NCBI GenBank assembly: GCA_963716175.1
Contig: OY970296.1
Span: 320,001 to 384,000, forward strand
Length of the DNA stretch: 64,000 bases
Source: an uncultured Armatimonadetes bacterium
GTDB taxonomy: Bacteria > Armatimonadota > Hebobacteria > Hebobacterales > Hebobacteraceae
Direction: 5' to 3'
Numbering within the stretch: the first letter of the stretch is position 1; each line of letters begins with the position of its first letter. The notes beneath the pieces were generated by a model, which saw only the letters and a list, made by a program, of their open reading frames with translations, was not told the origin of the DNA and did not search any database. A program made the position numbers and the translations under genes. Of the stretch, positions 39,791-56,885 are shown one piece after another.

Positions 39791-40042
39791 TGCTACCTCT
39801 TCGTAGATCTGCTGAACTGGCGAAAGGCCGCGTTCCCGCTCGTGGTAGTTGGCAGCAATGCTCTCGTCGCCTATATGTCCGGACCGTTCATTGACTTCGA
39901 CGGCATCGCGGGCAGCTTCGTGGGTGGCCTCGAGCTCGTGACTCCGTTCTGGTACCCACTGATCTTCACCGGCGCGGGCTTCCTGGCGCATTGGCTCGTG
40001 CTGCTGTGGATGTACCGCACCAGGACGTTCGTGAAGCTATGA
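39791..40042 (+). pseudogene. C-terminal remnant of a DUF5009/HGSNAT-like membrane acyltransferase
   Basis: CYLFVDLLNWRKAAFPLVVVGSNALVAYM...LWMYRTRTFVKL*; in-frame TAA at 39746 and no N-terminal part. Confidence 0.7.
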
Positions 40043-41122
40043 AGCTGAGCCGAGCAGGTCGCTCAGCTCGAAGGGTTCGGGGCGAGGGCAGCCGCTCTCC
40101 AGGCGGAGGTGGCGTTCCTGTTCCGAGGCCTCGTGGATGGCGTGCATGATGTCGAGCACGTGGTACATCAGCTCACCGCTGGCGCGAGGCGAACGGCCTG
40201 CGTGGATCGCTTGCGCCAATTCGGCCACGCCCAGCCCGCGGCCCCAGGCGGGAAAACCTTTGGGCAGCGACACCTGCTGCACCTCGTCGTCGCCCTGCTG
40301 CAAGGTGACCGTGCCGGTGTACGCGTTCGGGTCGTTGGTGACGAGCACGCCCTCGCTGCCAAGGATCTCCAGCCGCGGATGGTAGCCCGGCACCTCGCAG
40401 GTGGTGGTGATGGCGCCGACGCAGCCGCTCGCGAAGTCAAGCACGCCGGAGATGTTACCGGGGCGCGTGACGGAGTAAGTCTTGCCGTGATCGGGGGAAT
40501 CCGCCGGGTAGCGCTTCTCTCGGAAAGGGGTCTGAGCGGAGCCCGTGACGCGCCGCACCGGGCCCAGCAGCGAGACCAGCGCGGTCAGGTAGTACGGGCC
40601 CATGTCGAACATCGGGCCTGTGAAGATGTTGTAGTAGCGCTCCGAGCCGTGGCCGGCGGCGAGCAGTGCCTGGCCGGTGATGGGCGTGCCGATGGCGCCA
40701 TCATCAATCAGCCGTCGGCAGGCCTGCAGGCCGGCGCCAAGAAAGGTGTCGGCCGCGCCCGCGAGCAGCAGGCCGCGGCGCCGCGCGGCCTCGACGATCT
40801 CTTTCCCCAGCTCGCGGTTCACGGTAAGCGGCTTCTCCGAGAAGACGTGCTTGCCCGTCTCGAATGCGGCCATGGTCACCTCATAGTGCTGCGCGGGCAT
40901 GGTGAGGTTGACCACGATCTCGATCTCCGGGTCGGCCATCAGCTCCTCGGTAGTGCACACTCTGGGCACACCGAACTGGGCGGCGCGCTGCTGGGCGCGT
41001 TCGGGGATGAGGTCGGAACAGGCGGTCACCTGCACTAGGTCGGAGAGCATGCCCGTGAGGTGCTCGAGGTAGCTGCCGCTGATCTCGCCGCAGCCGACGA
41101 TGCCGGTCTTGACTGCCTTCAC
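40037..41122 (-). CDS. Gfo/Idh/MocA family oxidoreductase
   Basis: GIVGCGEIS, GKHVFSEKPL, DMGPYY; GTG start after GGAGG. Confidence 0.9.
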   Translation of the reverse strand: MKAVKTGIVGCGEISGSYLEHLTGMLSDLVQVTACSDLIPERAQQRAAQFGVPRVCTTEELMADPEIEIVVNLTMPAQHYEVTMAAFETGKHVFSEKPLTVNRELGKEIVEAARRRGLLLAGAADTFLGAGLQACRRLIDDGAIGTPITGQALLAAGHGSERYYNIFTGPMFDMGPYYLTALVSLLGPVRRVTGSAQTPFREKRYPADSPDHGKTYSVTRPGNISGVLDFASGCVGAITTTCEVPGYHPRLEILGSEGVLVTNDPNAYTGTVTLQQGDDEVQQVSLPKGFPAWGRGLGVAELAQAIHAGRSPRASGELMYHVLDIMHAIHEASEQERHLRLESGCPRPEPFELSDLLGSAS

Positions 41123-41255
41123 AGCTATCCCTCCCGAGAGGACATAAGCGGCAGGTTCCATTCGAGGCCGCGGCTCCCTGCACACCTGACCAAACCCATC
41201 CCACCTCCCCGGGCAGGTCTCACGGCCTTCCCGCCAGCAGGCTGATCCGGGAGGA

Positions 41256-42785
41256 TCACTCCAGGTAGCCTAGCGCCTCGAGCTCGCGCCGGGTCTGGGG
41301 AGGTAGCTTGCTCTGCGGCACCTCCGACACGGGGGTGGCGGCCGCAGTCGGTGAGATGAACTGTGCCAGCGGGCGGGCCTGCGTGTGCGCGAAGGCCCGA
41401 AAGGCCGCGATCATCCTCGCGGCTCTATCTGCGTGCTCGGCGGCGACGCTGTGCGCTTGTGCCGGGTCGCTCCGCAGGTCGTACAACGCCCGCAGCTTCC
41501 CGCCGCGATAGAGGATGAGGGACCACGACTGGTCTCTCACCAGGTAGCTCGGCCAAGGCTCCGCGCAGGTGGCGAAGACATAGTCGCGCAGTCTGCTCCT
41601 CTTCCCGTTGAGTAGCGAGAGCAGAGAACTGCCCTGAATCCTGCCGCGCGGGTGAGGTATCTGATAGAGATCGAGGACCGTGGGCAGCAGGTCCACGGTC
41701 TGCGTCAGCGCAGCCACATCGCCGACGAGTCGCTGTCGGCCTGGCAACCTAATCAGCAGGGGAATATGCACGAACTCGTCGTAGACCGCGTGCGAATGAT
41801 AGATGTACCCGTGTTCCCCGAACGCCTCGCCGTGGTCGGAAGTGACGATCAGAAGCGTGTTGTCGAGAAGATCGCGCGCCCGGAGCAGTCGCACCACTTC
41901 GCCCACACCCCAGTCGGCCCACCGCAGATTGGCATCATATAGGTTTTGCCATTGCTGAGGCGGGAGCGCCTTCATCCTGCCGTAGGACGGCCGTGTTTCA
42001 GGGAACTCGAAGTGCCCGTACCGCACGCCGCGCGGCGGTGAATCTGCAAACAGCGCCTTCAGCTCGTCGGGAGCATCGTAGGGATTGTGAGGGGGAAGGA
42101 AGTGGAGATAAGCGAAGAACCGGGACTGCCGCTCCCCGGACAGCCACCTGCCGAATACCTGGGTCAGTCCCTCCGGCGTTCGCCAGATATCTCCCTCGGG
42201 TAGCCCGATTCGCTCCTTCTTGGCCGAACCGAGGGCGGACGGGCTTACGAACACGCGCTCGAAGTCGCCCCCAATGCCCACCGCGGGAGCCGCCACCGCA
42301 TTGGAGCTGAAGAAAGCGGTGTGAAACCCCGCCCCCTTCAGCAGCTCCTCCAGCGTGCGGATCGCCGCATCCATCGTCTTGCGCCCGACGATGCAGTGCG
42401 TGTCGGGGTAGAGGCCGGTCAACAGCGACGCCGTGGACGGCTTTGTAGAGGGGTATGGTGAGAAGTGGTTTCTGAAGACCACGGATTCCTTGGCCAGCTC
42501 GTCCATGTTCGGGGTGGTCTCGCGTGGATAGCCGTAACCACCAACGTGGTCGGCCCTGGCGGCGTCAATGACACAGACTACGAGGTTAGCCGACCGCGCT
42601 CCGGCCAGGAGCTGATCCAATACCGGCTCGCCAACGGCGAGCGGGCCAAGCTGCGCTGACGCGGCTGAAACCCCTCCCCCTGGCTTGGCTGAGCGCAGCC
42701 TCACACGGCCCACCACCGCGAGCAGGGCAAGGAGGAGCACCACCGGCACCGCGAGTTTCACCATCCGGGAGCGGGGACGTCGCAT
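41256..42785 (-). CDS. Sulfatase-like hydrolase (alkaline phosphatase superfamily), exported or membrane-anchored
   Basis: IDAARADH, TPNMD, TKPSTASLLTG, PHNPY, TSDHGEAFGEHG, HIPL, LYDL, LEALGY. Confidence 0.85.
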   Translation of the reverse strand: MRRPRSRMVKLAVPVVLLLALLAVVGRVRLRSAKPGGGVSAASAQLGPLAVGEPVLDQLLAGARSANLVVCVIDAARADHVGGYGYPRETTPNMDELAKESVVFRNHFSPYPSTKPSTASLLTGLYPDTHCIVGRKTMDAAIRTLEELLKGAGFHTAFFSSNAVAAPAVGIGGDFERVFVSPSALGSAKKERIGLPEGDIWRTPEGLTQVFGRWLSGERQSRFFAYLHFLPPHNPYDAPDELKALFADSPPRGVRYGHFEFPETRPSYGRMKALPPQQWQNLYDANLRWADWGVGEVVRLLRARDLLDNTLLIVTSDHGEAFGEHGYIYHSHAVYDEFVHIPLLIRLPGRQRLVGDVAALTQTVDLLPTVLDLYQIPHPRGRIQGSSLLSLLNGKRSRLRDYVFATCAEPWPSYLVRDQSWSLILYRGGKLRALYDLRSDPAQAHSVAAEHADRAARMIAAFRAFAHTQARPLAQFISPTAAATPVSEVPQSKLPPQTRRELEALGYLE

Positions 42786-42998
42786 GCTTGCTCAGGACTC
42801 CTCTGGCAGCCTTGCTGGGGCGAGCCCGGACGCGCGGACGCAAATCCAGCGCAGCAATGTGATTACTTCGACCCGCAGCCCGCGATCACCTCCAGGCAGC
42901 ACCGATCCGGCAGCGGGTCCGGCAGGTGTCGCGGCCAGACCGGCAGTATAGTAGGGACATCCCCAGCCGTTGGCGCTAGGAGATATGGTGAGGCCCGC

Positions 42999-44790
42999 GA
43001 TGACGCTGCGTTGTGCGATGGCTCTTGCATTGCTGATCGCGCTGGCTGCTTACCGCGAGCCGCTGGGCACCGCTGGGCAGTCGCCCCCCACGAAGGAGAA
43101 CACGATGACTCAGGTCGAGAAGTACGATCCATCATTCTGGGTGTTCGGCTACGGACACCCCGAGCATCTGCAGCTCATCAAGGACCTGGGGTTTATGGGC
43201 GTAGGATTTTGGGCTGCTGACCGCGATGGCGAACGCATCAAGTACTACTTCGATTCGCCGACGCTGCGGCGGTTCGACTGGGCCACGCGGTCCCAGGAGC
43301 GGCCCAACCTCAGCGAATACGCGGCGCAGGCGCACGCCGCCGGCCTGAAAGTGATGGCCAATATGGAGGGTGTAAACCCCTACCACTGGGAGGCCGGTCG
43401 GAAGAACTGGACGCCCGAGATCATCGGCAGCGTGATGGCCGACTTGCACAACGACGGCGCCGACCGCTGGTTCACAGAGTGCGCTGCAGGCTGGCCCTCG
43501 TTGTTCTTTGCGCTGGCCGACACCGGCCGGAAGATCGGCATGGAGTACCAGGAGGGAGACGACCCCTCCTACCTCTACTACTCTGACTCTGAGACCGGGC
43601 AGCAGGGCTTCACTGACGTGTACCGTCGCGGCCATATGGTCAGCATGTACCACTACCAGTACCGGCGTGACGAGATCGGCAAACAGGCAAGCCTCGCGCA
43701 GGAAGGATCCCTGGCCTACGGTTTCGCCCGTGACTGGGGCCTGCCGACGGTCATGGTCTACCCGGTCGGGCACAACTGGGGCGAGCTGCCGGAGTACTGG
43801 GAGGGAATTCTCAAGCCCAGCATCGCCATCCGCGCCCTCCAGTTCCGGGTCCGCGACATCATGCTCATCGGCCTCGATGACGAGAAGGCGCGGCTGGTAG
43901 ATATCGCTGGCGTGAAGCAGTGGGTTTCCCACCTGGTGGAGAGGAACGCGCAAGAGAAGAGACCGGTGCTGAACGTCGTCGCCCATCTGAGGAGGGGCGA
44001 GGGCGAGCACTGGCGCGACTTCGCCAGCTCCGGCGATGCGATCACCAGTGGGGCCTTCCATGCGGGATGGAACGTGGTGGCGAGCACGGAGCCGCTGGCC
44101 GCTGCGGACGCCTACTACGTCTACACCGCGGGCAACGACGCGCAGGGGACGCTCGACCTCACGGCCGAGATCGCCAAGCTGTTTGAGGGCAGCAAGCCGG
44201 TCTTCCTTCAGATCGGGTCCGACATCCCCAGCGGAGGCGACTTGACACCCAACTGGCGCCGGGCTCTGGCTGCCTGCGGCGTGAAGCCGGAGGCGACGTT
44301 CAGCTATGATGACATGCCGGCAAGCGGGACCTACAAGGGCGCTCCCTTCACCTACACCGGCATCTTCACCGCTTACGAGGTGACAGAGCGGCGGCATGGG
44401 ACGCTGATCCCGCGCTCGGCGGTGACCGGGAGCATCGCCGCGGAGGGCGACGGCGTCCCGCTCATCATCAGCGCTGGGAACAAGCACCTGATCCCTGCGA
44501 ACTGCATCCGGTGGCAGGTCATGTATCCGATCAGCGATTTGCTGGCGGGATGCGGAGTGCGCGCTTCCTCGGACGTATGGGGGATTGCGGGAGAGCAGGT
44601 AACAGTGCTCTTGGCGACGCACGACACCGAGCTTGATATGGTCATCCCGGGACTGGCGAAGGGCGCCAAGATCCGGGTCACGCAGTGGGACAGGCTCCAC
44701 CAGATCACATATCAGGACACCGTCACCTACACTGGCTCATACCACAGGAGCATGAAGCAGTTCGATTCGATTGTCTTGGAGGCGCTCTGA
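42999..44790 (+). CDS. Hypothetical protein, possibly secreted and TIM-barrel GH-like
   Basis: Long ORF with coding-like GC3 bias and a hydrophobic N-terminus; alternative start at 43105 after AAGGAG; no family recognised. Confidence 0.6.
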
Positions 44791-44956
44791 GCTGCGGCCT
44801 GCGACGATCCAGAGGTCAGGCCGTGGCCTGTGACGATCTGCTGGCCATCCCCGGTACAGGGAACGAGCTTACCTGCAACTCAGAGGAGTGCCCGAGGACC
44901 CCCGGTTATCTGCGCGCGCGAATGGCGGCCCAAAAAGGAGGAACGGGAGGAAACCG

Positions 44957-46111
44957 ATGAGCGCTCAGAAGATGTTGGTCAGTGCTGTAGTTGTGCTGCT
45001 GGCTGTGGCCGGATCAGGGTTCGCACAGGGCGGCGGGCGCATGGGCCGCGGCGGTCGCGGCGGCTTCGGTCCGGGCAGCGGCGGTGGCCCCGGCGGGCCC
45101 TTCGACCCGGCACAGATGCGTCAGGCCTTGATGGCAGCAGGCGCGACCGAGGCCGACCTGGCGGCTATCGAGAGCTACCGCACGGCCCAGCGTAGCGCCA
45201 TGGATCCGCTGATGCAGGCGATGCTAGGCCTACAGGAAGCAGCAGGAAAGAGCGCCACGAACGAGCAGGCGACGCAGGCTGTGAGTAAGTACGAGGCGCT
45301 GAAGGCGAGCACGCTGACGCAACTGGCGAAGGCCGACGAAGGTCTCAGAGCGCAGCTTCGGCTATCGGCCAGGCCGAAGCTGCATGCTGCCTTGCTGGGG
45401 ATGGGCGTGCTCGATGACGGCCTGAGAGGGTTCGGAGGCATGAGAGGCGGCCGGCCGGGCCCGCCAGGTGGATTTGGCGGACGCGGGGGCCGCATGGGTG
45501 GCCCTGGTATGAACCGGGGGGCTTCACCTTCCTTTGACAGCCAAACGCTCCCGAACACAGACGCGGAGAAGACGATCCTGGCCGTGATCCAGGACCTGGA
45601 GGCGGGCCCACGGATGGAGAACGTCCCGCCCGAGGACGGCAGGCTGCTGCGGGTTCTGACGGAGGCAATCGGAGCCAAGCACGCGGTCGAGATCGGCACT
45701 TCCAACGGGTACTCGGCCCTCTGGCTCTCCCTGGCGCTACGGGACACGGGCGGGAAGCTGACCACGCATGAGATAGACCCCGAGCGCGCCGCTCTGGCCC
45801 GGGAGAACTTCGAGCGCGCTGGCGTTGGCGACATCGTCACCGTCGTTGAGGGCGATGCTCACGAGACGGTGACGAGGATCAAGGAGCCGGTTGACTTGCT
45901 GTTCCTTGATGCCGACAAGGAAGGCTACCTTGATTACCTGAACAAGCTTCTGCCGGTGGTGCGTCGCGGTGGGCTGGTGGTGGCCCATAACATGAACCCG
46001 GCGCAGGCAGATCCGCGGTACGTTGCTGCCATCACCGAGAACCCAGCGCTAGAGACGATCTTCCTGCACATGGAGGGAATGGGTGTCGGCGTGACTCTCA
46101 AGAAGGACTGA
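44957..46111 (+). CDS. O-methyltransferase with a signal peptide and Gly-rich/helical N-terminal extension
   Basis: VEIGTSNGYS, EIDPER, GDAHE, DLLFLDADKEGY, GGLVVAHN. Confidence 0.85.
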   Translation: MSAQKMLVSAVVVLLAVAGSGFAQGGGRMGRGGRGGFGPGSGGGPGGPFDPAQMRQALMAAGATEADLAAIESYRTAQRSAMDPLMQAMLGLQEAAGKSATNEQATQAVSKYEALKASTLTQLAKADEGLRAQLRLSARPKLHAALLGMGVLDDGLRGFGGMRGGRPGPPGGFGGRGGRMGGPGMNRGASPSFDSQTLPNTDAEKTILAVIQDLEAGPRMENVPPEDGRLLRVLTEAIGAKHAVEIGTSNGYSALWLSLALRDTGGKLTTHEIDPERAALARENFERAGVGDIVTVVEGDAHETVTRIKEPVDLLFLDADKEGYLDYLNKLLPVVRRGGLVVAHNMNPAQADPRYVAAITENPALETIFLHMEGMGVGVTLKKD

Positions 46112-46168: not shown

Positions 46169-47011
46169 CTACGTCGGCGGGTGCTCTTCCCCCGGAATCC
46201 CCACCGCATCCGCGGGGCACTGCCGGCAGAGCCGGAACTGCTTGATGATGCGCTCGCACTGCAAGCGTGTCTCGCGCAGTTCATGGCAAGATGGAGGTGC
46301 GAGATGCCTGAACCTCCCCAGTGGGATGAGCGGGGTGATGTTCTGTATGTGGGCACCGAGTCTGCTGACCACCCCGGCCACCTTCTCCAGATGTCCGCCG
46401 TCGTTCAGCCCTGGAAGGAGGATGCTGTTAACCTTGATCGCGAATCCCAATGCGGCTGCCTTTTCCAGCCCGGCGAGTTGGCTCTCCAGCAGGGCCTTCG
46501 CTCCTTCCAGGCCCGTTAGCCTCTTGCCACCATGCTCGACGTAGGCATAGATCCTTTCGCCGATCGTGGGGTCAACGGTGTTCATCGTAACCGTCAGTGT
46601 CCGCACCCCCAGATCCCACAACTGTTCTGAGCGCTCGCACAGCAGCAATCCATTGGTGCTCACGCACAGCATCAAGGCAGGATAGCGGGCGCTGACCAGC
46701 TGCAGTGTCTCGAAGGTGCTGGATTGGCAGAGAGGCTCCCCTGGCCCCGCAATCCCGACCACTGCCAGGCTGGCATCATGCGCCAGGTACTGGTCTAGTC
46801 GTCGCAGCGCCTCCTCCGGGGTCAGGACCCTGTCGGCTACAGCGGGACGGTAGCTGTGGTAGGTCTTCCCCCCGATCTCCCGCTCGCAGTAGTTACAGCC
46901 GAGGTTGCAGTCCGGGGCCACAGGCAGATGCATCCTGCCATACCGGAAGTGAGCCGAAGGCGAGTAGCAGGGGTGCTTGTCCAGATTCACCACGGCAGCG
47001 CTTCTCGTCAT
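46169..47011 (-). CDS. nifB: NifB-like radical SAM protein (stand-alone, no NifX-like domain)
   Basis: HPC, RMHLPVAP.CNLGCNYC, GIAGPGE, STNGL, TVTMN, KVN, CRQC.ADAVG. Confidence 0.85.
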   Translation of the reverse strand: MTRSAAVVNLDKHPCYSPSAHFRYGRMHLPVAPDCNLGCNYCEREIGGKTYHSYRPAVADRVLTPEEALRRLDQYLAHDASLAVVGIAGPGEPLCQSSTFETLQLVSARYPALMLCVSTNGLLLCERSEQLWDLGVRTLTVTMNTVDPTIGERIYAYVEHGGKRLTGLEGAKALLESQLAGLEKAAALGFAIKVNSILLPGLNDGGHLEKVAGVVSRLGAHIQNITPLIPLGRFRHLAPPSCHELRETRLQCERIIKQFRLCRQCPADAVGIPGEEHPPT

Positions 47012-47053
47012 CTGCCGGCCTCGTCGTAGGCCTCTCTCATTGCCGGTAAGTGC

Positions 47054-47911
47054 TCAACCGGGTAGACCATCGGTGTGCGCATAGACTGACTGGTAGAGCA
47101 CCTCCAGGTCAGACCACTCCATGGGGGTTGGGATGACGCGGATTTCATTGTCCAGCACCGCGTCTGCAAGCCGGCGGAAGTTCCCCGCGGCGAAGGAGTC
47201 AGGCAGGGCCTCCATCACCGTCTTCCCGTGGACCTCGCACATCTGGATATCCTGGCTGCGAGGGATAGAGCAGACCAGAGTGCATCCCAACTTGGAGGCG
47301 AAGTGCTCCAGCAAGCGGTTCTCGTAAGCTTCCTCCCCGCGGTGATTGCAGATGATGCCGGCCAACCGGGACGGACTGTGCTGGGCAAGGCGAGCAATCC
47401 CTCGCGCGATGTTGTTCGCCGCGTAGAGGCTCATGAATTCCCCGGTGCAGACCAGGTAGATCTCGCGAGCGTACCCCATCCGAATCGGCTGAGCAAAGCC
47501 GCCGCACACCACATCCCCTAGCACGTCGTAGAGCACCACGTCCAACTGGTAACGGTCAAACGCACCTTTGTCCTTGAGGTAGGAGATAGCAGTGAGCACC
47601 CCTCGCCCCGCGCATCCGATGCCAGGCTCCGGGCCACCGGACTCCACGCACTTGACGCCCTGGTACCCCTCGAACACAACTCCTTCCAGAGGGACTGTCT
47701 CCGCGTCTTTTCCGGCCGCCAGCTGGTCGCGCATCCGGTCCAGGACGGAAGGGATCATCCGGCCGCCGGTGAGATTGCGGGTCGAGTCTCGCTTTGGGTC
47801 GCACCCGATCTGCATCACCTTGCATCCGCGCTCGGCGAAGGCGACGGAGAGGTTTGCGGTGATGGTGCTCTTCCCAATGCCGCCTTTCCCATAGATCGCG
47901 ATCTGTCTCAT
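47054..47911 (-). CDS. NifH-like iron protein of a nitrogenase-like reductase
   Basis: MRQIAIYGKGGIGKST, GCDPKRDST, ESGGPEPGIGCAGRG, YDVLGDVVCGGFA. Confidence 0.92.
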   Translation of the reverse strand: MRQIAIYGKGGIGKSTITANLSVAFAERGCKVMQIGCDPKRDSTRNLTGGRMIPSVLDRMRDQLAAGKDAETVPLEGVVFEGYQGVKCVESGGPEPGIGCAGRGVLTAISYLKDKGAFDRYQLDVVLYDVLGDVVCGGFAQPIRMGYAREIYLVCTGEFMSLYAANNIARGIARLAQHSPSRLAGIICNHRGEEAYENRLLEHFASKLGCTLVCSIPRSQDIQMCEVHGKTVMEALPDSFAAGNFRRLADAVLDNEIRVIPTPMEWSDLEVLYQSVYAHTDGLPG

Positions 47912-47913
47912 CC

Positions 47914-49242
47914 TCACCACTTGGATCGGTACCTCTTTTCGCGGGAGCGCCACCGCTGTTGGTGGTCGTTCTCTAGGATCTCCAGCAGATGCAGCAGACC
48001 CTCGTACCCGAAGTAGGGCCGGTCGGTCATATAGAAGCGATCCGTCGGGGAGATGACGTTGAAAGAGAACGGAATGCCCAGCTCTTGAGCGAGGTGGTGT
48101 TCGACCATGCTGCCAAACACGCATGCAGGCTTGCTCTCCCTCAGGCCTTGCTTGACGTCGTAGGCGTCCGCGTCGAGGGTCACGGGAGTGGCAAGCGTGA
48201 GCTCTTCGAGCTCACGCTTGAGAATGGAACGGGCGGTCTCATCGGACGATCTCAGGAAGATCGAACAGGGTATCGCCTCCAGGTCCTCCATGATCAGCCG
48301 GACTAGCGGGATGCCAACAGTCGCGTCCGCTACGATCGCGGCCTCCACCCGGTGGAAGAAAGCAATCCCGGGACCGCGCAACCGGATGGCGCAGATGACC
48401 TGCTCGTGGCCTTCCTCAATCAGCTCCTGCGCCGTCTGCTCCGCGCCAAATCGCTGGCCCAGGGCCTCCAGCCATCTTCTCGTGTTCGACAGCCCAATGG
48501 GGAGCGGTATCTGCCGGCAGACCGGCTCGATGTCGTATCGTTCGGCAAGCTTGTCGGCGATCCCCCCGCCGGCATCATGGCTCAGCAGGAGACTGGTCTC
48601 GGCCGACGGAGTGCGGGCGATCCCCTCCATGTCCTGCAGATGGGTCAAGACGCTGACTACGGTGACTCCCATTTCAGCGAGCACCCCTCGCACCCAGGCC
48701 AGATCGGCATGCCACGTCGGATTCGCGCTGGCATGAGGGGCAATCAGCGTGACTGAGTTCTTAACCTTTCCCCCGCTATCGCGCGCAGCGAAGTCCAGCA
48801 GCTTTCCCAGCGCCAGGTCAATCCCCTGGTATTCGTCTCCCCGAAAGCCCGCGCACTCGATCGGCAGGATCTGCGCGCTGGACTCCGGAGCCATCAGCTC
48901 TGCGACTGCGGCGATGTCGTCGCCGACGACCTCCGGCCCGCAAGCGGAGAGGATGAACAGATAGGGCATGCCATAGGCCTCAGCGTCTCGGATGGTCTCC
49001 TTGAGCCGCTCCTCTCCCCCGTACACGATCTCCTTCTCGCAGAGCTTCGAAGAAACGACATGGGCCTCGGAGAAGTCCACATGCTGGCTGGCGAGCGCGT
49101 TGCCGATGAGGCCGTGGCAGCCTTGGGGACAGTGCAGGACAATGCAGGCGTCTCGGATCCCAGCCACCGTCTTGGCCGCTCCTGCGAAAGCGCACCGGAG
49201 GTAGGGGTCCAGGCAGCTCCGCTCTGTGGGGTTCTCTGGCAT
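47914..49242 (-). CDS. Nitrogenase component-1-like subunit (K/beta-like)
   Basis: CAFAGA, HCPQGC, L.EKEIVYGGEERL, SACGPEVVGDD, PIGL..T..WL, PYFGYEG. Confidence 0.88.
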   Translation of the reverse strand: MPENPTERSCLDPYLRCAFAGAAKTVAGIRDACIVLHCPQGCHGLIGNALASQHVDFSEAHVVSSKLCEKEIVYGGEERLKETIRDAEAYGMPYLFILSACGPEVVGDDIAAVAELMAPESSAQILPIECAGFRGDEYQGIDLALGKLLDFAARDSGGKVKNSVTLIAPHASANPTWHADLAWVRGVLAEMGVTVVSVLTHLQDMEGIARTPSAETSLLLSHDAGGGIADKLAERYDIEPVCRQIPLPIGLSNTRRWLEALGQRFGAEQTAQELIEEGHEQVICAIRLRGPGIAFFHRVEAAIVADATVGIPLVRLIMEDLEAIPCSIFLRSSDETARSILKRELEELTLATPVTLDADAYDVKQGLRESKPACVFGSMVEHHLAQELGIPFSFNVISPTDRFYMTDRPYFGYEGLLHLLEILENDHQQRWRSREKRYRSKW

Positions 49243-49277
49243 GGGCCTTCTCTGGATCCGGGAGATCGGTCAGCTCG

Positions 49278-50690
49278 CTACCACAGGTCCCCGTGCACTG
49301 CGATGCCGTACATTGCCTGCCGCATCAAGCCAGAGCGAGGCCGATCGGCGTGCTTTATCGCCGAGGCGGCGCGGCGAGCGATGTTCTGTACGCCAGTGAA
49401 GCCGAAGTGAGGGAAGGCGATCTCGGTGTCCAGGTTGACCACCGGGACGCCGGGGAACCGCAACGGGCTGCCGAAGTAGACGAAATCGTCCGCTCCGCCG
49501 ATGAAAGCCTCCAGCTCGTCCTGCGTCTGCTTGGAGACTTCGTAGCTGCCCATCTCAAAGGCGCCTTTAGTGAGCACGACTTCCGGATTCTCTCCACTGT
49601 CGAGCAAGAACCGAACCGCCGCCTTCCGCTCCCGCAGGGTATACGGGTGCATGTTGAAGATCACGGCTTGCATGCCGAATTCGGCCGCCATCCGGGCGAG
49701 CGCGATGGACCGCATGGGCCCGGTCTCTATCAAGGCCGTCCGACCTTGGAGCAAGGACCTAGCCTCCCTCAAGTCGGGCTCGATGCGCTCGGCCTCACGA
49801 GCTGTGAACTCGCGCGCCTGATCGTCCAGGCCCAAGGGCTCGGCAATCTTGCGAACCCAGTCCATGGTGGCTCCCATCCCGTAGGGGAGCCCGGATTCGC
49901 AGAAGGGAATCCCAAACCGCTCCTTCATGAGCAAGCCGATGCGCCTGCCCCAATCGAAGCACCAGGACGTGTTCAACGCCGCGCAGGGAGCACGTCTGAC
50001 CTGTTCCAGGGTACAACCACCCGCCACTACACTGTGCAGCTTGGCCCCGAACTGGGAGAGGATGAGCTGCAGCTCCTCGATGTCCTCCCGGATCTCCGTG
50101 TATGGGGGGCCCGCTCGCGCGCCGACGATGTTCACGCTGTGCGGAATGGTCTCTGTGGGAGGCTCCATCAGATCCACAATGACGCGGAAGGCCTGCTCGT
50201 GCCCACTTCGGAAGTCGCCCCCAAATCCCTCGCTGCGGATGGTCGTGATCTCCGCCTTCACCTGCCCCCGCATCTGCCGGGCGATCCCCTCGACGTCATC
50301 CCCAGTGATTCCGGGGCAGCAAGTGCTCATCACCACGATGAGATCCGGGCAGTACTTCTGGTCCACCTCCAAGATGGCCCGGGCGAGCTTGCCTTCGCCG
50401 CCAAAAACGACGTGACTCTCGTTCAGTGCAGTGCATACCGTGGGTTCGTAGGGCCGGCCGCGGTATTGACAGCCTGCGACCCTAAGGCCCCGAATGGAGT
50501 AGGTGCACCCGCGCGGGCCGTGCACGATCGGCACCACGTTGTTGATCCCGCTGATCACTGTAGCCGCGGTCTGGAACTTGCAGGGGGGCGCGTGAGAGGC
50601 CTGTAGCTGGGAGGAGAGCTCGCCGGCCTCCACCCTTCGCAGGTACTCATCCAGCCTGCCCTGAAACACGATGTAATCCGTTTCCGCCAC
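49278..50690 (-). CDS. Nitrogenase component-1-like subunit (D/alpha-like)
   Basis: PCKF, HGPRGC, LNESHVVFGGEGKL, TCCPGITGDDV, EGF, LNTSWC, PYG...T..W, PHFGFTG; GTG start at 50690 inferred. Confidence 0.88.
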   Translation of the reverse strand: MAETDYIVFQGRLDEYLRRVEAGELSSQLQASHAPPCKFQTAATVISGINNVVPIVHGPRGCTYSIRGLRVAGCQYRGRPYEPTVCTALNESHVVFGGEGKLARAILEVDQKYCPDLIVVMSTCCPGITGDDVEGIARQMRGQVKAEITTIRSEGFGGDFRSGHEQAFRVIVDLMEPPTETIPHSVNIVGARAGPPYTEIREDIEELQLILSQFGAKLHSVVAGGCTLEQVRRAPCAALNTSWCFDWGRRIGLLMKERFGIPFCESGLPYGMGATMDWVRKIAEPLGLDDQAREFTAREAERIEPDLREARSLLQGRTALIETGPMRSIALARMAAEFGMQAVIFNMHPYTLRERKAAVRFLLDSGENPEVVLTKGAFEMGSYEVSKQTQDELEAFIGGADDFVYFGSPLRFPGVPVVNLDTEIAFPHFGFTGVQNIARRAASAIKHADRPRSGLMRQAMYGIAVHGDLW

Positions 50691-50697
50691 GTCACTG

Positions 50698-50726
50698 ATA
50701 CTAGACCCTTTGGACCTGCGAAGCAA
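50698..50726 (-). promoter_or_regulatory. Candidate sigma70 promoter for the nitrogenase-like operon
   Basis: TTGCTT-17 nt-TAGTAT, ending 7 nt before the GTG at 50690. Confidence 0.5.
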
Positions 50727-50847
50727 GGACTGATTCCGCCCGCGCTGCCAACCCGCGGTCTCCCGCCCATGCCCGCACGGTGCTAGACGCCCATTGCTGT
50801 AACCACGGCAAGCAACGCATCCGCATCTGCCCCAGAGCCACGTCGCC

Positions 50848-51013
50848 TTGACAGAAGTCCTGCCACCGGCTACCCTTGGCCCGTCTGGTCGAGGCAAGTC
50901 AGGCGGGAGTGGGAAGGTGGCTGCCGCATTGGCTGTGCTCATGCTTCTTGCACCGGTCTCCTCAGCAGTGTCGAGGCGCGCCTTCCTGGCGCGCCTTTTC
51001 TAGTGGCCCTGCG
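50848..51013 (+). promoter_or_regulatory. Repeated promoter-leader-terminator element, copy A
   Basis: TTGACA-17-TACCCT; terminator AGGCGCGCC-ttcct-GGCGCGCCT-TTTC; homologous to 63508-63675. Confidence 0.7.
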
Positions 51014-51141
51014 CAGAGAACAGACCGCGGCTGCGTTGCTCCATACAGCCGGGTACGCATGGACGAGGAAAGGAGGTGAAGCGAAGCCCTGTGTCGCGTG
51101 ACATGTCGTAGCTGCAAGCAAGAGAGGAGGTCTGAGAGACC

Positions 51142-52176
51142 ATGGTCCGGAGAAGGCGTGGCTTCACCTTGATCGAGCTGTTGGTTGTGATCGCAATCAT
51201 TGCGATCCTCGCGGCGATGCTCTTCCCGGTTTTCGCCCGGGCGCGCGAGTCGGCCCGCAAGATCCAGTGCCTCTCGAATGTCAAAAACGTCGCGATGGCG
51301 GTCCAGATGTACCTCGCAGACTGGGACCGCTACATGGTGCTGGAGCACCGCGCTGAGGTGCTCGCCTACTACGACGCGAAGAACCCCGACGGCGGGTACA
51401 GCAGCAGCTATCACTGCGCGCACGGCACCTACTTCGCCAACCCCTACCTGAGGATGCCGGTGCTGCTGGACGAGTACATCAGGAACCGGGATGTCTGGCG
51501 GTGCCCAAGCGCGAAGTTCGAGCAGGGCGCAATTTCGATTAATGGCTGGCCGGACTGGTTCGCCTGGCGGCTGAAGTACGACGGCCAGGTGTGTCACACC
51601 AATACCTGCTGCCCCCAGTACCCAAACGGCTGGGGAGGCACCGTCACCGACTCAGGGGCCCAGCAGATGGTGGCAAGCGGCATCGGGGGGACTAAGGATA
51701 CCGCGCTTGGGGCTTTCGCCATGAGCCTCACCATCAACCGCGGGGACTATGAGGCCAAGGAGTCGCAGATTAGCGATCCGTCCACGCATGGAGTGGTCGC
51801 CGATGGCGGGAACGTCACGGATGAGCTGGCGGAGGCAACCGCGGCCTACCCCGACGTCTGCCTGCTGGACTGCGGCAACTCGGTGTGCAGTTGGGTGGAT
51901 TGGGAGAACTGCAGCGAGAACGCGAGCTGCGGCTTGTACAACCGGGCGCCCACGAGCGGGGTCTTGCTGAGCGACCTCCAGATGCGAAAGTCCTACGCGC
52001 GTCACTTGGGTGGAACCAATGTCGGCTTCTGGGACGGGCACGCCGCCTGGATCAGCTCGGAGGCCTTGATAGACGCCGTCGAGGCGGGCCAGCTCCAAGG
52101 CTTCGACGTGTCCTGGGGCCCGCGCTCCTACTGCGGCTTCGCCGAGGAGTACCCGGGAGTGCCGACACTGCGATAA
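51142..52176 (+). CDS. Prepilin-type / DUF1559 / H-X9-DG protein (paralogue 4)
   Basis: [10 protein letters not shown]..., [15 protein letters not shown]. Confidence 0.92.
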
Positions 52177-52207
52177 GGGACCGAGCCTCCTGAACAATGC
52201 GCACGAT

Positions 52208-52244
52208 CTGCGGACGGAGCGGGACGGCAGCGCTCCGTCCGCAG
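52208..52244 (+). terminator. Hairpin downstream of paralogue 4
   Basis: CTGCGGACGGAGCG-9 nt-CGCTCCGTCCGCAG. Confidence 0.65.
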
Positions 52245-52483
52245 CGCTATCTGGTTGCGCGGCAGGAGGGCTGCCGGCTGCTACCGAAGACCCGGCCCCA
52301 GGCTAGACGCGTTATCCGCGGAAGGCAATTGATGGGTGTCTGGCTGTGATGCTCGTAGTGGCCGCCGCCACCATCGCCGCCGTCAACCGCACACGCGTCC
52401 CGGCTGCGGCCGGCCGCAAAGCCAAGGGATGATAGTGGAGGCGCTAGGATGAGCTACTCGCGGCTTCCGGTTGGGATTGCGCG

Positions 52484-54106
52484 GTGAGCGGGCCCGCGTG
52501 CGCAGGGGAGAGTGCGGGACGGGGGGCCTCGGTATGGGTCTCCTCCCCGTGGCAGCACGTGCTCAAGACAGCAAAGCCGGGCCCGACCCAGTCGGTTCGC
52601 CTAAGCGCTGCGCGCAATGAGTACGAGCCGGCGCGAGTGGTCATCACGGCAGGCGGCACCTCCCTGCGCGACGTTAATGCCGCTGCCAGTCCTCTGGTCG
52701 GCCCCGGTGGAGGGCAGATCGCGGCTTCCAATATCTGCTTCTACCGCGAGCATTACATCAACATCCACAAGCCTAGCCCCCGCTCCACCGCCGCGCCTGG
52801 GTGGTACCCGGACCCACTGATCCCGTTCCTTGATCCGGTCACCGGCCGCCCCATCGCTGAGGCCCGGTACCGTGGCGCGCCCTTTGATGTGGAGGCCCGG
52901 TGCAGCCAGGGCATATGGGTTGACCTCTACGTGCCGCGCAACACATCAGCAGGCGAATATGAGGGTGCGATTACCATCACCTGCTCAGGGCACGCGATCG
53001 CCCGCGTGCCGCTGTCGCTGACCGTCTTCGATTTCACTCTCCCGGACACGTTCGCGTTGAGGTCGAACTTCGGCTCTCTAGGAGGCAGCCTCGCGGAGCG
53101 CCTCGGGATGGACCGGGACTCTGATGAGTTCGCGCAGGTCGAGGTCCTGTACTGCGATACCCTCCTCGCTCACCGCTGCATTCCCAGCGGCCTGGGACGT
53201 ATCTGGCCGGATTGGAGCCCTGAGAAGGGCCTCGACGATGCGAGCAGTGTTGAGCGCCTGCGCAGCATGGTCCGGGAGCGGCATGTCAACTCACTGATGG
53301 TCCCGTTCCGGTACTGGGAAGAGCGCGGCAAGTGCGCGGCCTACCTGCGCGCGATGGAGGGCTGCCTGGACCGCCAGGGCTTCCTGGATCTCTGTTACAT
53401 CTACATGCTCGACGAACCGAACACTGCGGAGCAATACGAGACTGTCCGGCAGCAAGGAAAGTTGATTCACAAGGCCGCTCCCGGCATCAAGCGCCTTTGC
53501 ACTGAGCAGACCATCACTCAGGATCCCGCCTTCGGGGACCTATACGGCGCAGTGGACATCTGGTGCCCGCTGTGGGGGCTTTATGACGAGCAGACGGCGC
53601 GGGAGCGACAGGCCCTGGGTGAGGAGATATGGAGCTACACCGCGCTCTGCCAGATGGACGAGAAGAACCCATTCTGGGAGATCGACTTCCCGCCGATCGT
53701 GTACCGGGCGCCGTTCTGGGTGAACTGGCATCACCACATCAAGGGGTTCCTCTATTGGTCCAGCATCCACTGGAGGGACAGCGCCACAGCCTGGGAGGCG
53801 CCTCTCTATGACGACGCATACTGGGGCGAAGGTGTGCTGCTCTATCCCGGAAAGCCGGCCGGTATCAGGGGACCGGCGCCGTCCCTGCGCCTGAAGCTGA
53901 TCCGCGAGGCGATGGAGGACTACGAGTACATGGCGCTCGCAGAGAAGCTCGTCGGCAGGGAGAAGGTGGATCGAGTGGTCAGCTCGCGGGCGCGCTCTTT
54001 CACTGATTGGGACAGAGATCCTGACGCCTATCTGCGCGGGAGAACGGAGCTGGCGAACCTGGTCGAGCGAGCAGGTCGAGGCGGTGCCAGCAATCGGGAT
54101 CAGTAA
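52484..54106 (+). CDS. GH123-like / DUF4091 glycoside hydrolase
   Basis: AARNEYE, YPDPLIP, WVDLYVP...AGEYEG, DEP, DIWCP, GFLYW, GEG.LLYPG, SLRL..IRE..EDYEY. Start codon uncertain. Confidence 0.8.
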   Translation: MSGPACAGESAGRGASVWVSSPWQHVLKTAKPGPTQSVRLSAARNEYEPARVVITAGGTSLRDVNAAASPLVGPGGGQIAASNICFYREHYINIHKPSPRSTAAPGWYPDPLIPFLDPVTGRPIAEARYRGAPFDVEARCSQGIWVDLYVPRNTSAGEYEGAITITCSGHAIARVPLSLTVFDFTLPDTFALRSNFGSLGGSLAERLGMDRDSDEFAQVEVLYCDTLLAHRCIPSGLGRIWPDWSPEKGLDDASSVERLRSMVRERHVNSLMVPFRYWEERGKCAAYLRAMEGCLDRQGFLDLCYIYMLDEPNTAEQYETVRQQGKLIHKAAPGIKRLCTEQTITQDPAFGDLYGAVDIWCPLWGLYDEQTARERQALGEEIWSYTALCQMDEKNPFWEIDFPPIVYRAPFWVNWHHHIKGFLYWSSIHWRDSATAWEAPLYDDAYWGEGVLLYPGKPAGIRGPAPSLRLKLIREAMEDYEYMALAEKLVGREKVDRVVSSRARSFTDWDRDPDAYLRGRTELANLVERAGRGGASNRDQ

Positions 54107-55459: not shown

Positions 55460-56885
55460 CTACTCGGCCGCGCCCGCCGCGACTGCGCGGCGGATGATGG
55501 CCCGGAGGTCCCGCTCGCACTCCGGCGTCAGGCTCGGCGTCTCCGGCGACGCGAACAGAAGCGCGCGAATCCGCTCCTTGACGCGTTCCCTTTCGGAGCG
55601 CGCCCCCGACGCCTGCCAGCCCTGCAGCGACTGCCGGTCCCAGATCGCCGGCTCCCAGAGCTCTTGGCGGAACCTCTGGGCAGTCAGCCCGGACCCCATG
55701 AAGTTGCCGCCGGGTCCCACCTCCTTGATGTCCGCGACCGCGCAGGTCTCTGGGCTGACTTCGATGGGCCGTATCATGTGGGAGATCGCGCTTGCCAGTT
55801 CGGCGTCGTGGATCATCTGCTCGGGCGAGCATACTTCGTCCAGCGAGAGCAGGCCTGCGTCCATGATCGCGCTGCCCGCGGACAGAAGGCTGGCCACAGA
55901 GATCATGCCCTTCTGCATCCCGGCCTGCACCGAGGGCTCCTTCGCGTCAGTCAGTCCTGCGCCAGCGCCGGAGGACACCCCGTAGAAGCGCGCGACCTGG
56001 GCAAGTATCGCCTTGACGGCCGCACGCTCCGGTCGGCCGCCCATGCTGCGAGCGCTCTGCATGTCTGCAACAACACCGAACCCACCGAGGTGAAAAGACC
56101 GGCCGCCCCACAGCGCCCGGCCGAGCATGCCTAGGAACAGAGCCTCCGCCAGCTTCAGTACCGCAGCCCCGGCCGGGGTGACCGGCGCCGAGCTCCCCAT
56201 GGACGGCATGTGGCCAATATGCCTCTGCAGGCCGCGGCGCCTGAAGTAGAGCAGCTGCTCGCACTCCGACCGCGCCAGCCGCAGCGGGCTGATCAGGTAG
56301 CCCACTGCGCCGAAGCAGTCCTCCAGCCTCTGCCCGGTCTCTTGGGCCCAGCGCGCGATACATCTCCACCAGGTATGGGCAGAGCCCTGTGCACTGAACC
56401 GTGCCCGCGGGCTCGGCGCCATACCTCCAGGCGTACAGCTTCTCCGCCAGCGGAGTGTAGCCAGCAGGAATGCCGGCGGGTTCAAACGGCAGGCCCAGCA
56501 GACTTACGCCGCTGACCTCTGGCAGCGCGTTCCCCAGCCGAATATAGTCCCGGAGAGCGTCTTCCGCGAAGGGCTCGAGTTGATCCGTCGCCGGGTTGAG
56601 ATAGAGGCAAGCGTAGATCCCCGCATAGCAGCCGAAGCTGGCCCGATGATTCTGCCAATCGTGCTTCTCCGAATCAGAGACGAACTGCTCCACACGTGCG
56701 GGCAGGAAGCGCGCCCGCTGCTCCGCCACGTTCACCTCTGCTCCGTGATTGGCCAGCAGCGAGAGAAGCTCCCTGGACTCGACCTGCGCACCGACCTCAT
56801 GCAGCACCCGCAGTGCGGAGCGGTGGATCTCCTCGACGCTGGATGCAGGCAATGGGTCGTAGAACCTCGGTGCCATCGCGATCAT
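55460..56885 (-). pseudogene. Trimethylamine methyltransferase (MttB) family gene, frameshifted
   Basis: N-terminal part (EEIHRSALRVLHEVG) is in ORF 55947..56885; C-terminal part (ISPLR, GSSAPVTPAG, IKEVGPGGNFM) is in ORF 55460..56485; frames switch near 56357. Confidence 0.8.

Follow-up and report, generated by a model that had tools for sequence, protein, structure and literature searches.

A free-standing nitrogenase-like operon with putative VnfE/VnfN-type subunits in an uncultured Armatimonadetes bacterium: a candidate ATP-driven reductase

The 64,000-nucleotide stretch of DNA analysed here (referred to below as the window) comes from an uncultured Armatimonadetes bacterium (GenBank assembly GCA_963716175.1, contig OY970296.1, positions 320,001 to 384,000 of the forward strand). 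Its minus strand carries four packed, intact genes that fill positions 46169-50690 and encode, in order, a nitrogenase-type component-1 alpha subunit ('D'), a beta subunit ('K'), a NifH-type Fe protein ('H') and a NifB ('B'). We consider it probable, with modest assurance, that this operon specifies a complete, free-standing, ATP-driven two-component reductase working with an all-iron cluster made by NifB. Judged by sequence, the alpha/beta core appears to represent a deep 'VnfE/VnfN-like' lineage that is not NifDK, canonical NifEN, methylthio-alkane reductase (Mar) or isethionate reductase (Isr), the comparison with Mar and Isr being one of scores and described features. This assessment draws on the gene content of the operon, the conservation of its cluster ligands, its family relations, purifying selection on its genes and the absence of a nitrogenase client. 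A preliminary description of the locus had recognised the packed D-K-H-B genes, all four of which proved to be real, and had allied them with the C-S bond-reducing Group IV enzymes Mar and Isr, an alliance that the comparisons given below do not bear out.

The alpha gene (49278..50690, minus strand) encodes 470 aa from a GTG at 50690, and the beta gene (47914..49242, minus strand) encodes 442 aa. Both products match PF00148 (265 and 247 bits, respectively), and both fall below the NCBIfam equivalog cut-offs for nifD/vnfD/anfD, nifK/vnfK/anfK and nifE/nifN: alpha scores 177 bits with nifE against a cut-off of 505, 133 with nifD (cut-off 654), 86 with VNFD (823) and 75 with ANFD (874), while beta scores 48 bits with nifK (427) and 20 with nifN (327). 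The Fe protein gene (47054..47911, minus strand; 285 aa) lies in an open reading frame (ORF) spanning 47054-48124, whose residue 73 is the first of the NifH domain; translation probably starts at the ATG at 47911, which directly adjoins the beta stop codon. The product has the P-loop GKGGIGKS and the cluster cysteines C100 and C136, and matches PF00142 at 328 bits, TIGR01287 at 350 bits (cut-off 394), and NifH and MarH chains of the PDB at 282 and 259 bits. The fourth gene (46169..47011, minus strand; 280 aa) encodes a minimal radical S-adenosylmethionine (SAM) NifB without a NifX domain. TIGR01290 is its sole strong NCBIfam match (271 bits, model positions 5-279 of 441), and over its full length it matches the PDB entries 6y1x (280 bits) and the NifB structures 7bi7, 7jma and 7jmb (252 bits). 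It displays the HPC motif (C15), the CxxxCxxC motif (C35, C39, C42), a TNG-adjacent C116 and a C-terminal CxxC (C262, C265), and is probably a radical-SAM carbide-cluster synthase. Spacers calculated from the coordinates are 35 nt (D-K), 0 nt (K-H) and 42 nt (H-B).

Pfam matches above the gathering score and motifs place the operon in the PF00148 superfamily together with a NifH-type Fe protein and NifB, and the description of a NifB-linked, NifH-driven nitrogenase-family enzyme agrees with the Pfam, NCBIfam and PDB scores. It is also, as had been proposed, not a dark-operative protochlorophyllide oxidoreductase (DPOR), a chlorophyllide oxidoreductase (COR) or CfbCD, with scores below the relevant cut-offs (methan_mark_13, 40 bits against 268; CfbC, 350 against 402; BchB, BchN and BchZ far below). 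The alpha ORF extends from 49278 to 50942, and the GTG at 50690 fits the lengths of homologues (467-473 aa). Upstream of this GTG the frame stays open for 84 codons (50691-50942, minus strand), which are rich in Pro, Gly and Arg and are not kept in relatives; the gene may therefore be liable to over-extension by gene callers.

The genome to which the window belongs is a single contig of 4.56 Mb with an estimated completeness of 90.85%. Across it, PF00148 matches only the two operon genes, with no other component-1 gene and no VnfD or VnfK, and PF00142 gives one strong match, the operon Fe protein, beside three weak P-loop matches. The operon NifB is the sole NifB in the genome, there are no matches to PF02579 (NifX/NafY) or to AnfG/VnfG, and NifV is not reached, with three LeuA-like matches of 149-276 bits against a cut-off of 463. 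The nitrogenase accessory set (NifEN or VnfEN beside DK, NifX/NafY, NifV and a G subunit) is therefore missing not just from the window, as first noted, but from the whole genome. P-II gave three weak matches, located megabases from the window. A relative, genome G005, likewise has just these two component-1 genes. At least one complete-looking genome with the module therefore has no nitrogenase.

A scan of genome contigs with the alpha protein returned one locus, from an Armatimonadota metagenome-assembled genome (MAG) of the same family as the window's genome (81% identity). Only 2 of 401 genomes of the phylum, the window's own and G005, have the alpha family at E <= 1e-60, a sparse distribution that fits horizontal acquisition. 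Four further genomes of the window's class (G023, G024, G029 and G030; loci L004-L009) contain other component-1 alpha-type genes, 26-31% identical to that of the window, which could be true nif or other nitrogen-fixation-like (NFL) systems. Sampled sequence words of the stretch were found at a fraction of at least 0.26 in 12 sequencing runs, which are labelled wetland and sediment metagenomes; no RNA run was among the listed runs containing it.

We searched for the closest relatives of the alpha subunit. A first protein search returned 335 proteins at E <= 0.001, the best 120 of which consisted of alpha itself, six proteins with 80-84% identity and others with 49-56%; the few of these 120 that carry a name were from Dehalococcoidia, Anaerolineae and Chloroflexota. 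An exhaustive search of representative sequences gave 2187 proteins at E <= 0.001, the best 150 of which had a floor of 107 bits. The top representative was 52% identical (529 bits), followed by two at 39-40% (about 400 bits) and then by one at 33% (223 bits). The cluster of the 52% representative contains 'nitrogenase associated protein E [Methanosarcina acetivorans C2A]' (50% identity with the window alpha), together with Methanoregula and Methanomicrobiaceae proteins and JGI 'VnfE' calls. In a plasmid collection, the best matches were on three Nostoc plasmids (43-44% identity over 97% of the query), and rhizobial NifD proteins in the same collection were 25-27% identical.

One of these plasmids, pC052_A of Nostoc sp. 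C052, supplies a genetic context. The match lies directly after vnfK, which itself comes after vnfD (fused to G), and is followed by another component-1 gene. Although the record says only 'nitrogenase component 1', the position of this pair suggests that it is VnfE/VnfN, as in the vnfDGKEN order of Anabaena. Pairwise, the window alpha is 43% identical to the protein in the VnfE position over its full length (E 7e-145, 412 bits) and the beta subunit 39% identical to that in the VnfN position, also over the full length (E 6e-113). The window module itself does not lie downstream of vnfDGK, the location expected of a maturase. The labels 'D' and 'K' given in the preliminary description are apt by position, but by sequence the pair is nearer to VnfE/VnfN than to any NifD/NifK.

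Comparisons with known structures were much less discriminating. PDB chains, their identities confirmed through papers, were all distant from alpha (NifEN fusion, 133 bits; methanogen NifD, 113; Clostridium pasteurianum NifD, 101; M. infernus NifD, 98; MarD, 95), and the best PDB match of beta was MarK at 84 bits. A family profile was equally flat (157-182 bits). The 95 bits of Rhodospirillum rubrum MarD fall short of the 107 bits or more scored by each of the best 150 representatives. Cluster membership supplied hardly any names for sequences outside the family. None of ten representatives from neighbouring clades reached a Nif cut-off in NCBIfam, and one of the neighbouring representatives, P0132, had no PDB match at E <= 1e-30. 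An AlphaFold2 model of alpha (mean predicted local distance difference test score, pLDDT, 79.8; predicted template-modelling score, pTM, 0.81) matched NifD, NifE, VnfD and MarD alike in Foldseek (TMq 0.59-0.70) and so did not discriminate between them. The C-terminal 141 residues of alpha, searched alone, found no PDB chain at E <= 10. HMMER alignments of alpha with MarD end at residue 343-349, and no residue could be matched to MarD His428.

Phylogenetic analysis supports the same placement. A first FastTree of 119 rows recovered a 14-row family around the window alpha. The 57 rows subsequently analysed with IQ-TREE (LG+C20, quick search) comprised 19 of the family, 26 hand-picked from the 108 full-length representatives among the FastTree rows, NifD and NifE of R. 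etli and D. vulgaris, Nostoc VnfD and seven beta-type outgroup rows. Canonical NifD, VnfD and NifE formed one clade with a Shimodaira-Hasegawa-like approximate likelihood ratio (SH-aLRT) support of 100, and the window's family formed a separate clade (99) with Nostoc VnfE inside it. This family clade consists of Nostoc VnfE and two relatives, a second pair, and a 14-row stand-alone clade (96) in which the window and two relatives of 80-83% identity (99) are sister to a set from Chloroflexota and methanogens (100). Nostoc VnfN is the partner of the window beta (99). Deeper relations in this tree are unreliable, since the outgroup was not recovered as monophyletic and long branches occurred in four rows. 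An approximately unbiased (AU) test rejected a clade of the family with canonical NifE (delta log-likelihood 109, p 4e-9), although this group was named after inspection of the tree. Garcia et al. (2022) describe long-branched 'early diverged VnfE clades' that are basal in their tree of nitrogenases and maturases, and the position of the window's family agrees with this. It also agrees with Pi et al. (2022), who equate sequences annotated 'nitrogenase associated protein E/N' with the VnfE/N of Boyd 2011 and attach the suffix '-like' to them. Nesting within a characterised Mar, Isr or Nif clade, which would have overturned the preliminary description, was not observed, Nif and Vnf being represented by rows of the tree, Mar by score and Isr by description; in agreement with the preliminary description, no characterised member was found within the window's own clade.

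Conservation was assessed in family alignments of 76 rows for alpha, 55 for beta, 43 for the Fe protein and 35 for NifB. The three cysteines at P-cluster positions that had been noted in each of D and K are invariant (alpha C37, C62 and C124, 76/76; beta C17, C42 and C101, 55/55), as are C100 and C136 of the Fe protein (43/43) and C15, C35, C39, C42, C116, C262 and C265 of NifB (35/35). H33, H57, C226, C244 and H348 are the other invariant residues of alpha. In an alignment with reference Nif and Vnf sequences C244 aligns with NifD Cys275, and residues of the Gln191/His195 type are not conserved. H348 lies in a segment that aligns with the 380-383 region of NifD, with an uncertainty of about three residues between two alignments; this segment lines FeMo-co. 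There is no Cys in the 36 residues before C37, and thus no equivalent of NifE-Cys25, a residue that Garcia et al. (2022) describe as missing in 'certain VnfE homologs'.

A second group of cysteines is nearly invariant (alpha C74, C86 and C125 at 0.99; beta C10, C68 and C242 at 0.96-0.98). In an 11-row alignment, Nostoc VnfE and the P0123 row lack C74, C86 and C125, and the P0124 row lacks C86 and C125. Counted more broadly, the stand-alone clade has eight extra cysteines conserved at 0.87-0.99 (alpha C74, C86 and C125; beta C10, C33, C68, C130 and C242), seven of which are replaced in Nostoc VnfE/VnfN, beta C10 lying outside the pairwise alignment. C74 and C86 are contained in the stretches of lowest confidence in the AlphaFold2 model (70-81 and 87-96).

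All four genes are under purifying selection. The ratio of nonsynonymous to synonymous substitution rates (dN/dS, Nei-Gojobori) was 0.07-0.23 in all 40 pairs formed by the four genes in the window and four close relatives, although dS exceeded 1 in every pair that includes the window, making those ratios rough.

The module is also conserved as a unit. Scanning metagenomes with the family alignment yielded 516 relatives, and loci were counted among the best 80, with gene order scored only where enough downstream DNA was present. The D-K-H-B order recurs: K follows D at 55 of 59 loci, H follows K at 50 of 50 and B directly follows H at 34 of 44, with B lying 1-4 kb downstream at two of the ten remaining loci. 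None of the 80 loci contained a stretch whose best match was Nostoc VnfDG or VnfK. Loci L084-L090, with D-K-H and no adjacent B, are of methanogen type: a Methanoregula protein matches the L087 alpha at 100% identity, and a M. acetivorans protein (AAM05041.1) is 91% identical to the alphas of L084, L085, L087 and L090. Consecutive NCBI accessions confirm the D-K-H adjacency in a Methanoregula MAG, and in a Methanomicrobiaceae MAG the accession numbers of D and H are two apart. Named members of the family are thus from Chloroflexota, Methanoregula, Methanomicrobiaceae and Methanosarcina acetivorans.

Some loci are arranged differently. At L062, L063, L065 and L069 an alpha-like gene (52% identity, 489-492 aa) occurs without beta, H or B beside it; this gene (in L065, at L065:9977-11455) is located among conserved minus-strand neighbours. 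L018 has the order B-D-K (L018:7324-12642), and there the gene just upstream of B encodes a Mg-chelatase ChlI-like AAA+ protein.

Beyond D, K, H and B, clustering of the ORFs of the 80 loci revealed nothing recurrent, the largest non-module cluster being present at 7 of 80. Pfam analysis of 20 same-strand neighbours gave no family for seven, xylose-isomerase-like TIM barrels for four, methyltransferases for two and singletons for the other seven, and none of the 20 was a nitrogen-regulatory, Mo/V-transport or sulfur-assimilation gene. The four xylose-isomerase-like neighbours (PF01261) lie directly beside the module on the same strand (L034:5573-6382, L041:6515-7354, L049:14546-15328 and L089:777-1544), and three of these four loci are mutually close.

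From these observations we infer the types of cluster, a catalytic and not a scaffolding role, and the nature of the substrate. The radical-SAM chemistry of NifB would fuse two [4Fe-4S] units around a carbide to give an 8Fe L-type cluster, which would be held in alpha at C244, the equivalent of NifD Cys275. With NifEN, NifX, NifV and a G subunit all missing from the genome, this cluster would be expected to stay all-iron, without Mo, V or homocitrate. The Fe-protein dimer would hydrolyse MgATP and deliver electrons to it through an 8Fe P-type cluster bridged by the six cysteines, three per subunit, and a small substrate would be reduced at the L-type cluster.

Several lines of evidence argue for such an enzyme. 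H, alpha, beta and NifB are all present and their cluster ligands are invariant, the order of the module is conserved with no VnfDG- or VnfK-like region at any of the 80 loci, and the dN/dS values indicate purifying selection. The alpha/beta pair has six P-cluster cysteines, compared with the 3+1 of A. vinelandii NifEN. A catalytic enzyme is favoured over a maturase because the genome encodes a full reductase set, nothing to convert NifB-co to FeMo-co or FeV-co and no D/K recipient; with one component-1 pair in the genome, a maturase would have no NifDK-type client. There is also precedent in the literature. Lee et al. (2024; PMC11168457) describe the reduction of N2 by L-cluster-loaded NifEN with NifH and ATP, and predict that a NifEN-type protein with six cysteines, 'yet to be isolated', would be more active; clusters made by MarB/NifB are described as catalytic in Mar (PMC13474568). 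As to the substrate, slow reduction of N2 or of another small molecule by an iron-only cluster is the leading candidate, which we put forward tentatively, at well below an even chance, and cleavage of organosulfur C-S bonds is less likely.

A number of observations weigh against this interpretation. In the reference alignment the column of NifD His442 contains Leu or a gap in the family, though the C-terminal alignment is weak, and no second ligand of the cluster could be assigned confidently. The closest relatives with a known genetic context are presumed to act as maturases, and three cysteines are kept in Nostoc VnfN as well. Gene neighbourhoods give no clue to a substrate, either across the 80 loci or among the 20 neighbours. 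In Methanoregula the family members coexist with canonical nif, and M. acetivorans does so according to a 2021 bioRxiv paper, which would make N2 fixation by the module redundant in those methanogens. Finally, no Mar activity is reported for the non-IV-C NFL systems described in mBio 2026 (PMC13753814), among which the window family was apparently not tested.

The first alternative is that the operon encodes a cofactor maturase or scaffold like VnfEN, handing its carbide cluster to an unrelated, non-NifDK client encoded elsewhere. This would account for the kinship with proteins in the VnfE/VnfN position and for the absence of His442, which maturases also lack in our alignment and as described by Garcia et al. 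(2022). The presence of an Fe protein is compatible with it, as NifEN function is stated to need NifH too (PMC11168457), and the Chem Rev article describes L-cluster-like cofactors in a non-nitrogenase complex, the activation complex of methyl-coenzyme M reductase (MCR). Methanogens, moreover, have D-K-H versions of the module. Other observations argue against a maturase: no client gene is conserved beside the module at the 80 loci, the genome has no NifX-type carrier, and alpha has no equivalent of NifE-Cys25 to bind a surface L-cluster. The bacterial hosts are not known to possess MCR, and the six P-cluster cysteines have been kept under selection. We regard a maturase as unlikely.

A second alternative, which we hold to be unlikely to a similar degree, is a functional 'minimal' nitrogenase of the iron-only type, providing fixed nitrogen in anoxic habitats such as wetlands or sediments. 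Both NifEN and NifDK loaded with the L-cluster are reported to reduce N2 (PMC11168457), the host has no other nitrogenase, the 12 runs containing sequence words of the stretch have wetland or sediment labels, and Chem Rev describes the Group IV-A Nfa system as implicated in N2 fixation without His442. Nonetheless, none of the sampled loci has P-II, amtB or another nitrogen gene next to the module, neither His442 nor residues of the Gln191/His195 type are conserved, members of the family also occur in methanogens with nif, and the rates reported for L-cluster-loaded NifEN are very low (PMC11168457). A more far-reaching proposal is that the module is a living, free-standing member of the 'maturase-like' stock that has been suggested as the source of nitrogenase. 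In such an enzyme a P-cluster and an all-iron carbide cluster would reduce N2 or another small molecule, needing neither Mo, V or homocitrate nor NifEN or a catalytic D/K partner, and this stock would be where cyanobacterial vnf clusters obtained VnfEN. We offer this as a speculation that is rather improbable as it stands.

The alliance with Mar and Isr would make the operon an organosulfur reductase for sulfur acquisition. Its B-H-D-K gene content is the same as that of Mar, MarK is the best PDB match of beta (84 bits), an equivalent of Cys270 of Mar (Cys275 of Nif) is present, and the window contains a sulfatase gene at a distance of 3.4 kb. Set against this, alpha scores 95 bits with MarD and 412 bits with Nostoc VnfE, MarD ranks below all of the best 150 representatives (107 bits or more), the defining features of Isr are absent, no sulfur genes or transporters were found among the 20 sampled neighbours and the sulfatase is not conserved beside relatives. 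Of the substrate roles considered, one of the Mar/Isr type has the least support, and we think it distinctly improbable. The notion that the operon is a decaying remnant of a V-nitrogenase cluster after loss of vnfDGK, prompted by its kinship with vnf-linked VnfE/VnfN, is hardly credible given four intact genes with dN/dS of 0.07-0.23, a stand-alone clade separate from the vnf-linked one (SH-aLRT 96), clade-specific cysteines (C74, C86 and C125) that are wholly or partly replaced in the Nostoc, P0123 and P0124 rows, and 516 relatives in one metagenome scan, none of the best 80 of which lies beside vnfDGK.

On both sides the operon is bounded by plus-strand genes, one for an O-methyltransferase that is convergent with it (44888-46111) and one for a DUF1559/N-methyl protein that is divergent from it (51142-52176), and it therefore comprises exactly four genes. 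Its promoter presumably lies in the divergent intergenic region between the operon and the DUF1559/N-methyl gene (50691..51141). No upstream motif was common to the window and six close relatives, and scans for sigma-70 promoters and terminators performed at chance (one found against 1.0 expected, and two against 2.3, respectively). The G+C content of the operon is 0.62-0.63, compared with 0.65-0.66 on both sides.

The wider surroundings (40037-46111 and 51142-54106) encode a GFO/IDH/MocA oxidoreductase, a sulfatase, the O-methyltransferase, which is Gly-rich, the DUF1559/N-methyl protein and a GH123 glycosidase. They resemble carbohydrate/sulfatase housekeeping, and none of these genes is kept beside relatives of the operon. 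Further along, an MttB-family (trimethylamine methyltransferase-like) gene at 55460-56885 on the minus strand is split by a frameshift over two overlapping frames, its N-terminal part being the ORF 55947-56885 and its C-terminal part 55460-56485 (PF06253 positions 226-495 of 500). The gene is either a pseudogene or affected by an indel in the assembly; an in-frame TAG plays no part in the split.

Our literature search found no account of a free-standing D-K-H-B module, its distribution or its function, although supplements may list sequences, and sequences of this kind are already present in databases and published trees as 'VnfE/N-like'. Nitrogenase-like enzymes as such are known; what sets this one apart is its clade, its kinship with maturases and its independence from any nitrogenase. 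The family bears on whether nitrogenases descended from maturase-like proteins, a question on which Garcia et al. (2022) and Pi et al. (2022) are at variance, and on whether a protein of the EN type that has both a P-cluster and an L-cluster can work as an independent enzyme. With its EN-like subunits, six P-cluster cysteines, own Fe protein and own NifB, it offers a natural and widespread test case. According to Chem Rev 2026, work on NFL enzymes is held back chiefly by a shortage of hosts that are genetically tractable; as a member is named from the tractable Methanosarcina acetivorans C2A, the question would be directly testable. For annotation, it follows that nifH, nifB, 'nifD/E' and 'nifK/N' found together are no indication of diazotrophy.

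Among known systems, the operon most resembles Nostoc VnfE/VnfN. The two share 43% (alpha) and 39% (beta) full-length identity and a clade (SH-aLRT 99), three cysteines per subunit, the Cys275 equivalent and C226, and both lack His442 and NifE-Cys25. They differ in that the window module stands away from vnfDGK (0/80 loci) in a genome without nitrogenase, carries its own H and NifB, and has the extra clade-specific cysteines (alpha C74, C86 and C125; beta C10, C68 and C242). With canonical NifEN (A. vinelandii, 3PDI; NifE of R. etli and D. vulgaris) it shares a component-1 fold of the alpha2beta2 type (TM 0.65-0.67), cysteines at the Cys250 and Cys275 positions, the absence of His442, and NifB and NifH as functional partners, and the best NCBIfam and PDB scores of alpha are with NifE and NifEN. 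It is set apart from canonical NifEN by the nifE score of 177 bits against a cut-off of 505, by the AU test (p 4e-9), with canonical NifE grouping with NifD, and by the absence of Cys25, of a NifDK client and of the 3+1 O-cluster set, as beta has three cysteines and not one.

Mar (MarBHDK, Group IV-C; PDB 9FMG and 9D9U) has the same four-protein set, likewise without NifEN and with a requirement for a NifB-type maturase, as well as the P-cluster cysteines and a Cys at the 270/275 position. The window proteins score only 95 bits (alpha) and 84 bits (beta) against it, however, the order of the genes is D-K-H-B, and the sulfur-gene neighbourhood reported in the literature for Group IV is absent (0/20 neighbours). 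In Isr (Group IV-F), IsrD is described as having one of the three P-cluster cysteines and no Cys275, and IsrB as related to NifB only in its radical-SAM motif (PMC11423573), whereas the window has three cysteines and C244 in alpha and a full NifB. CfbCD differs in having no K subunit, and the Group VI NFL systems, which according to Chem Rev have neither NifB nor Cys275, differ from the window in both respects. A further parallel is the L-cluster-loaded NifEN presented as a 'prototype nitrogenase' by Lee et al. (2024; PMC11168457), which likewise combines an EN-type scaffold, an Fe protein and the product of NifB with no Mo or homocitrate step. That protein is a laboratory construct whose cluster is bound at the surface by Cys25, whereas the window protein has no such Cys and belongs to a natural, selected, stand-alone module.

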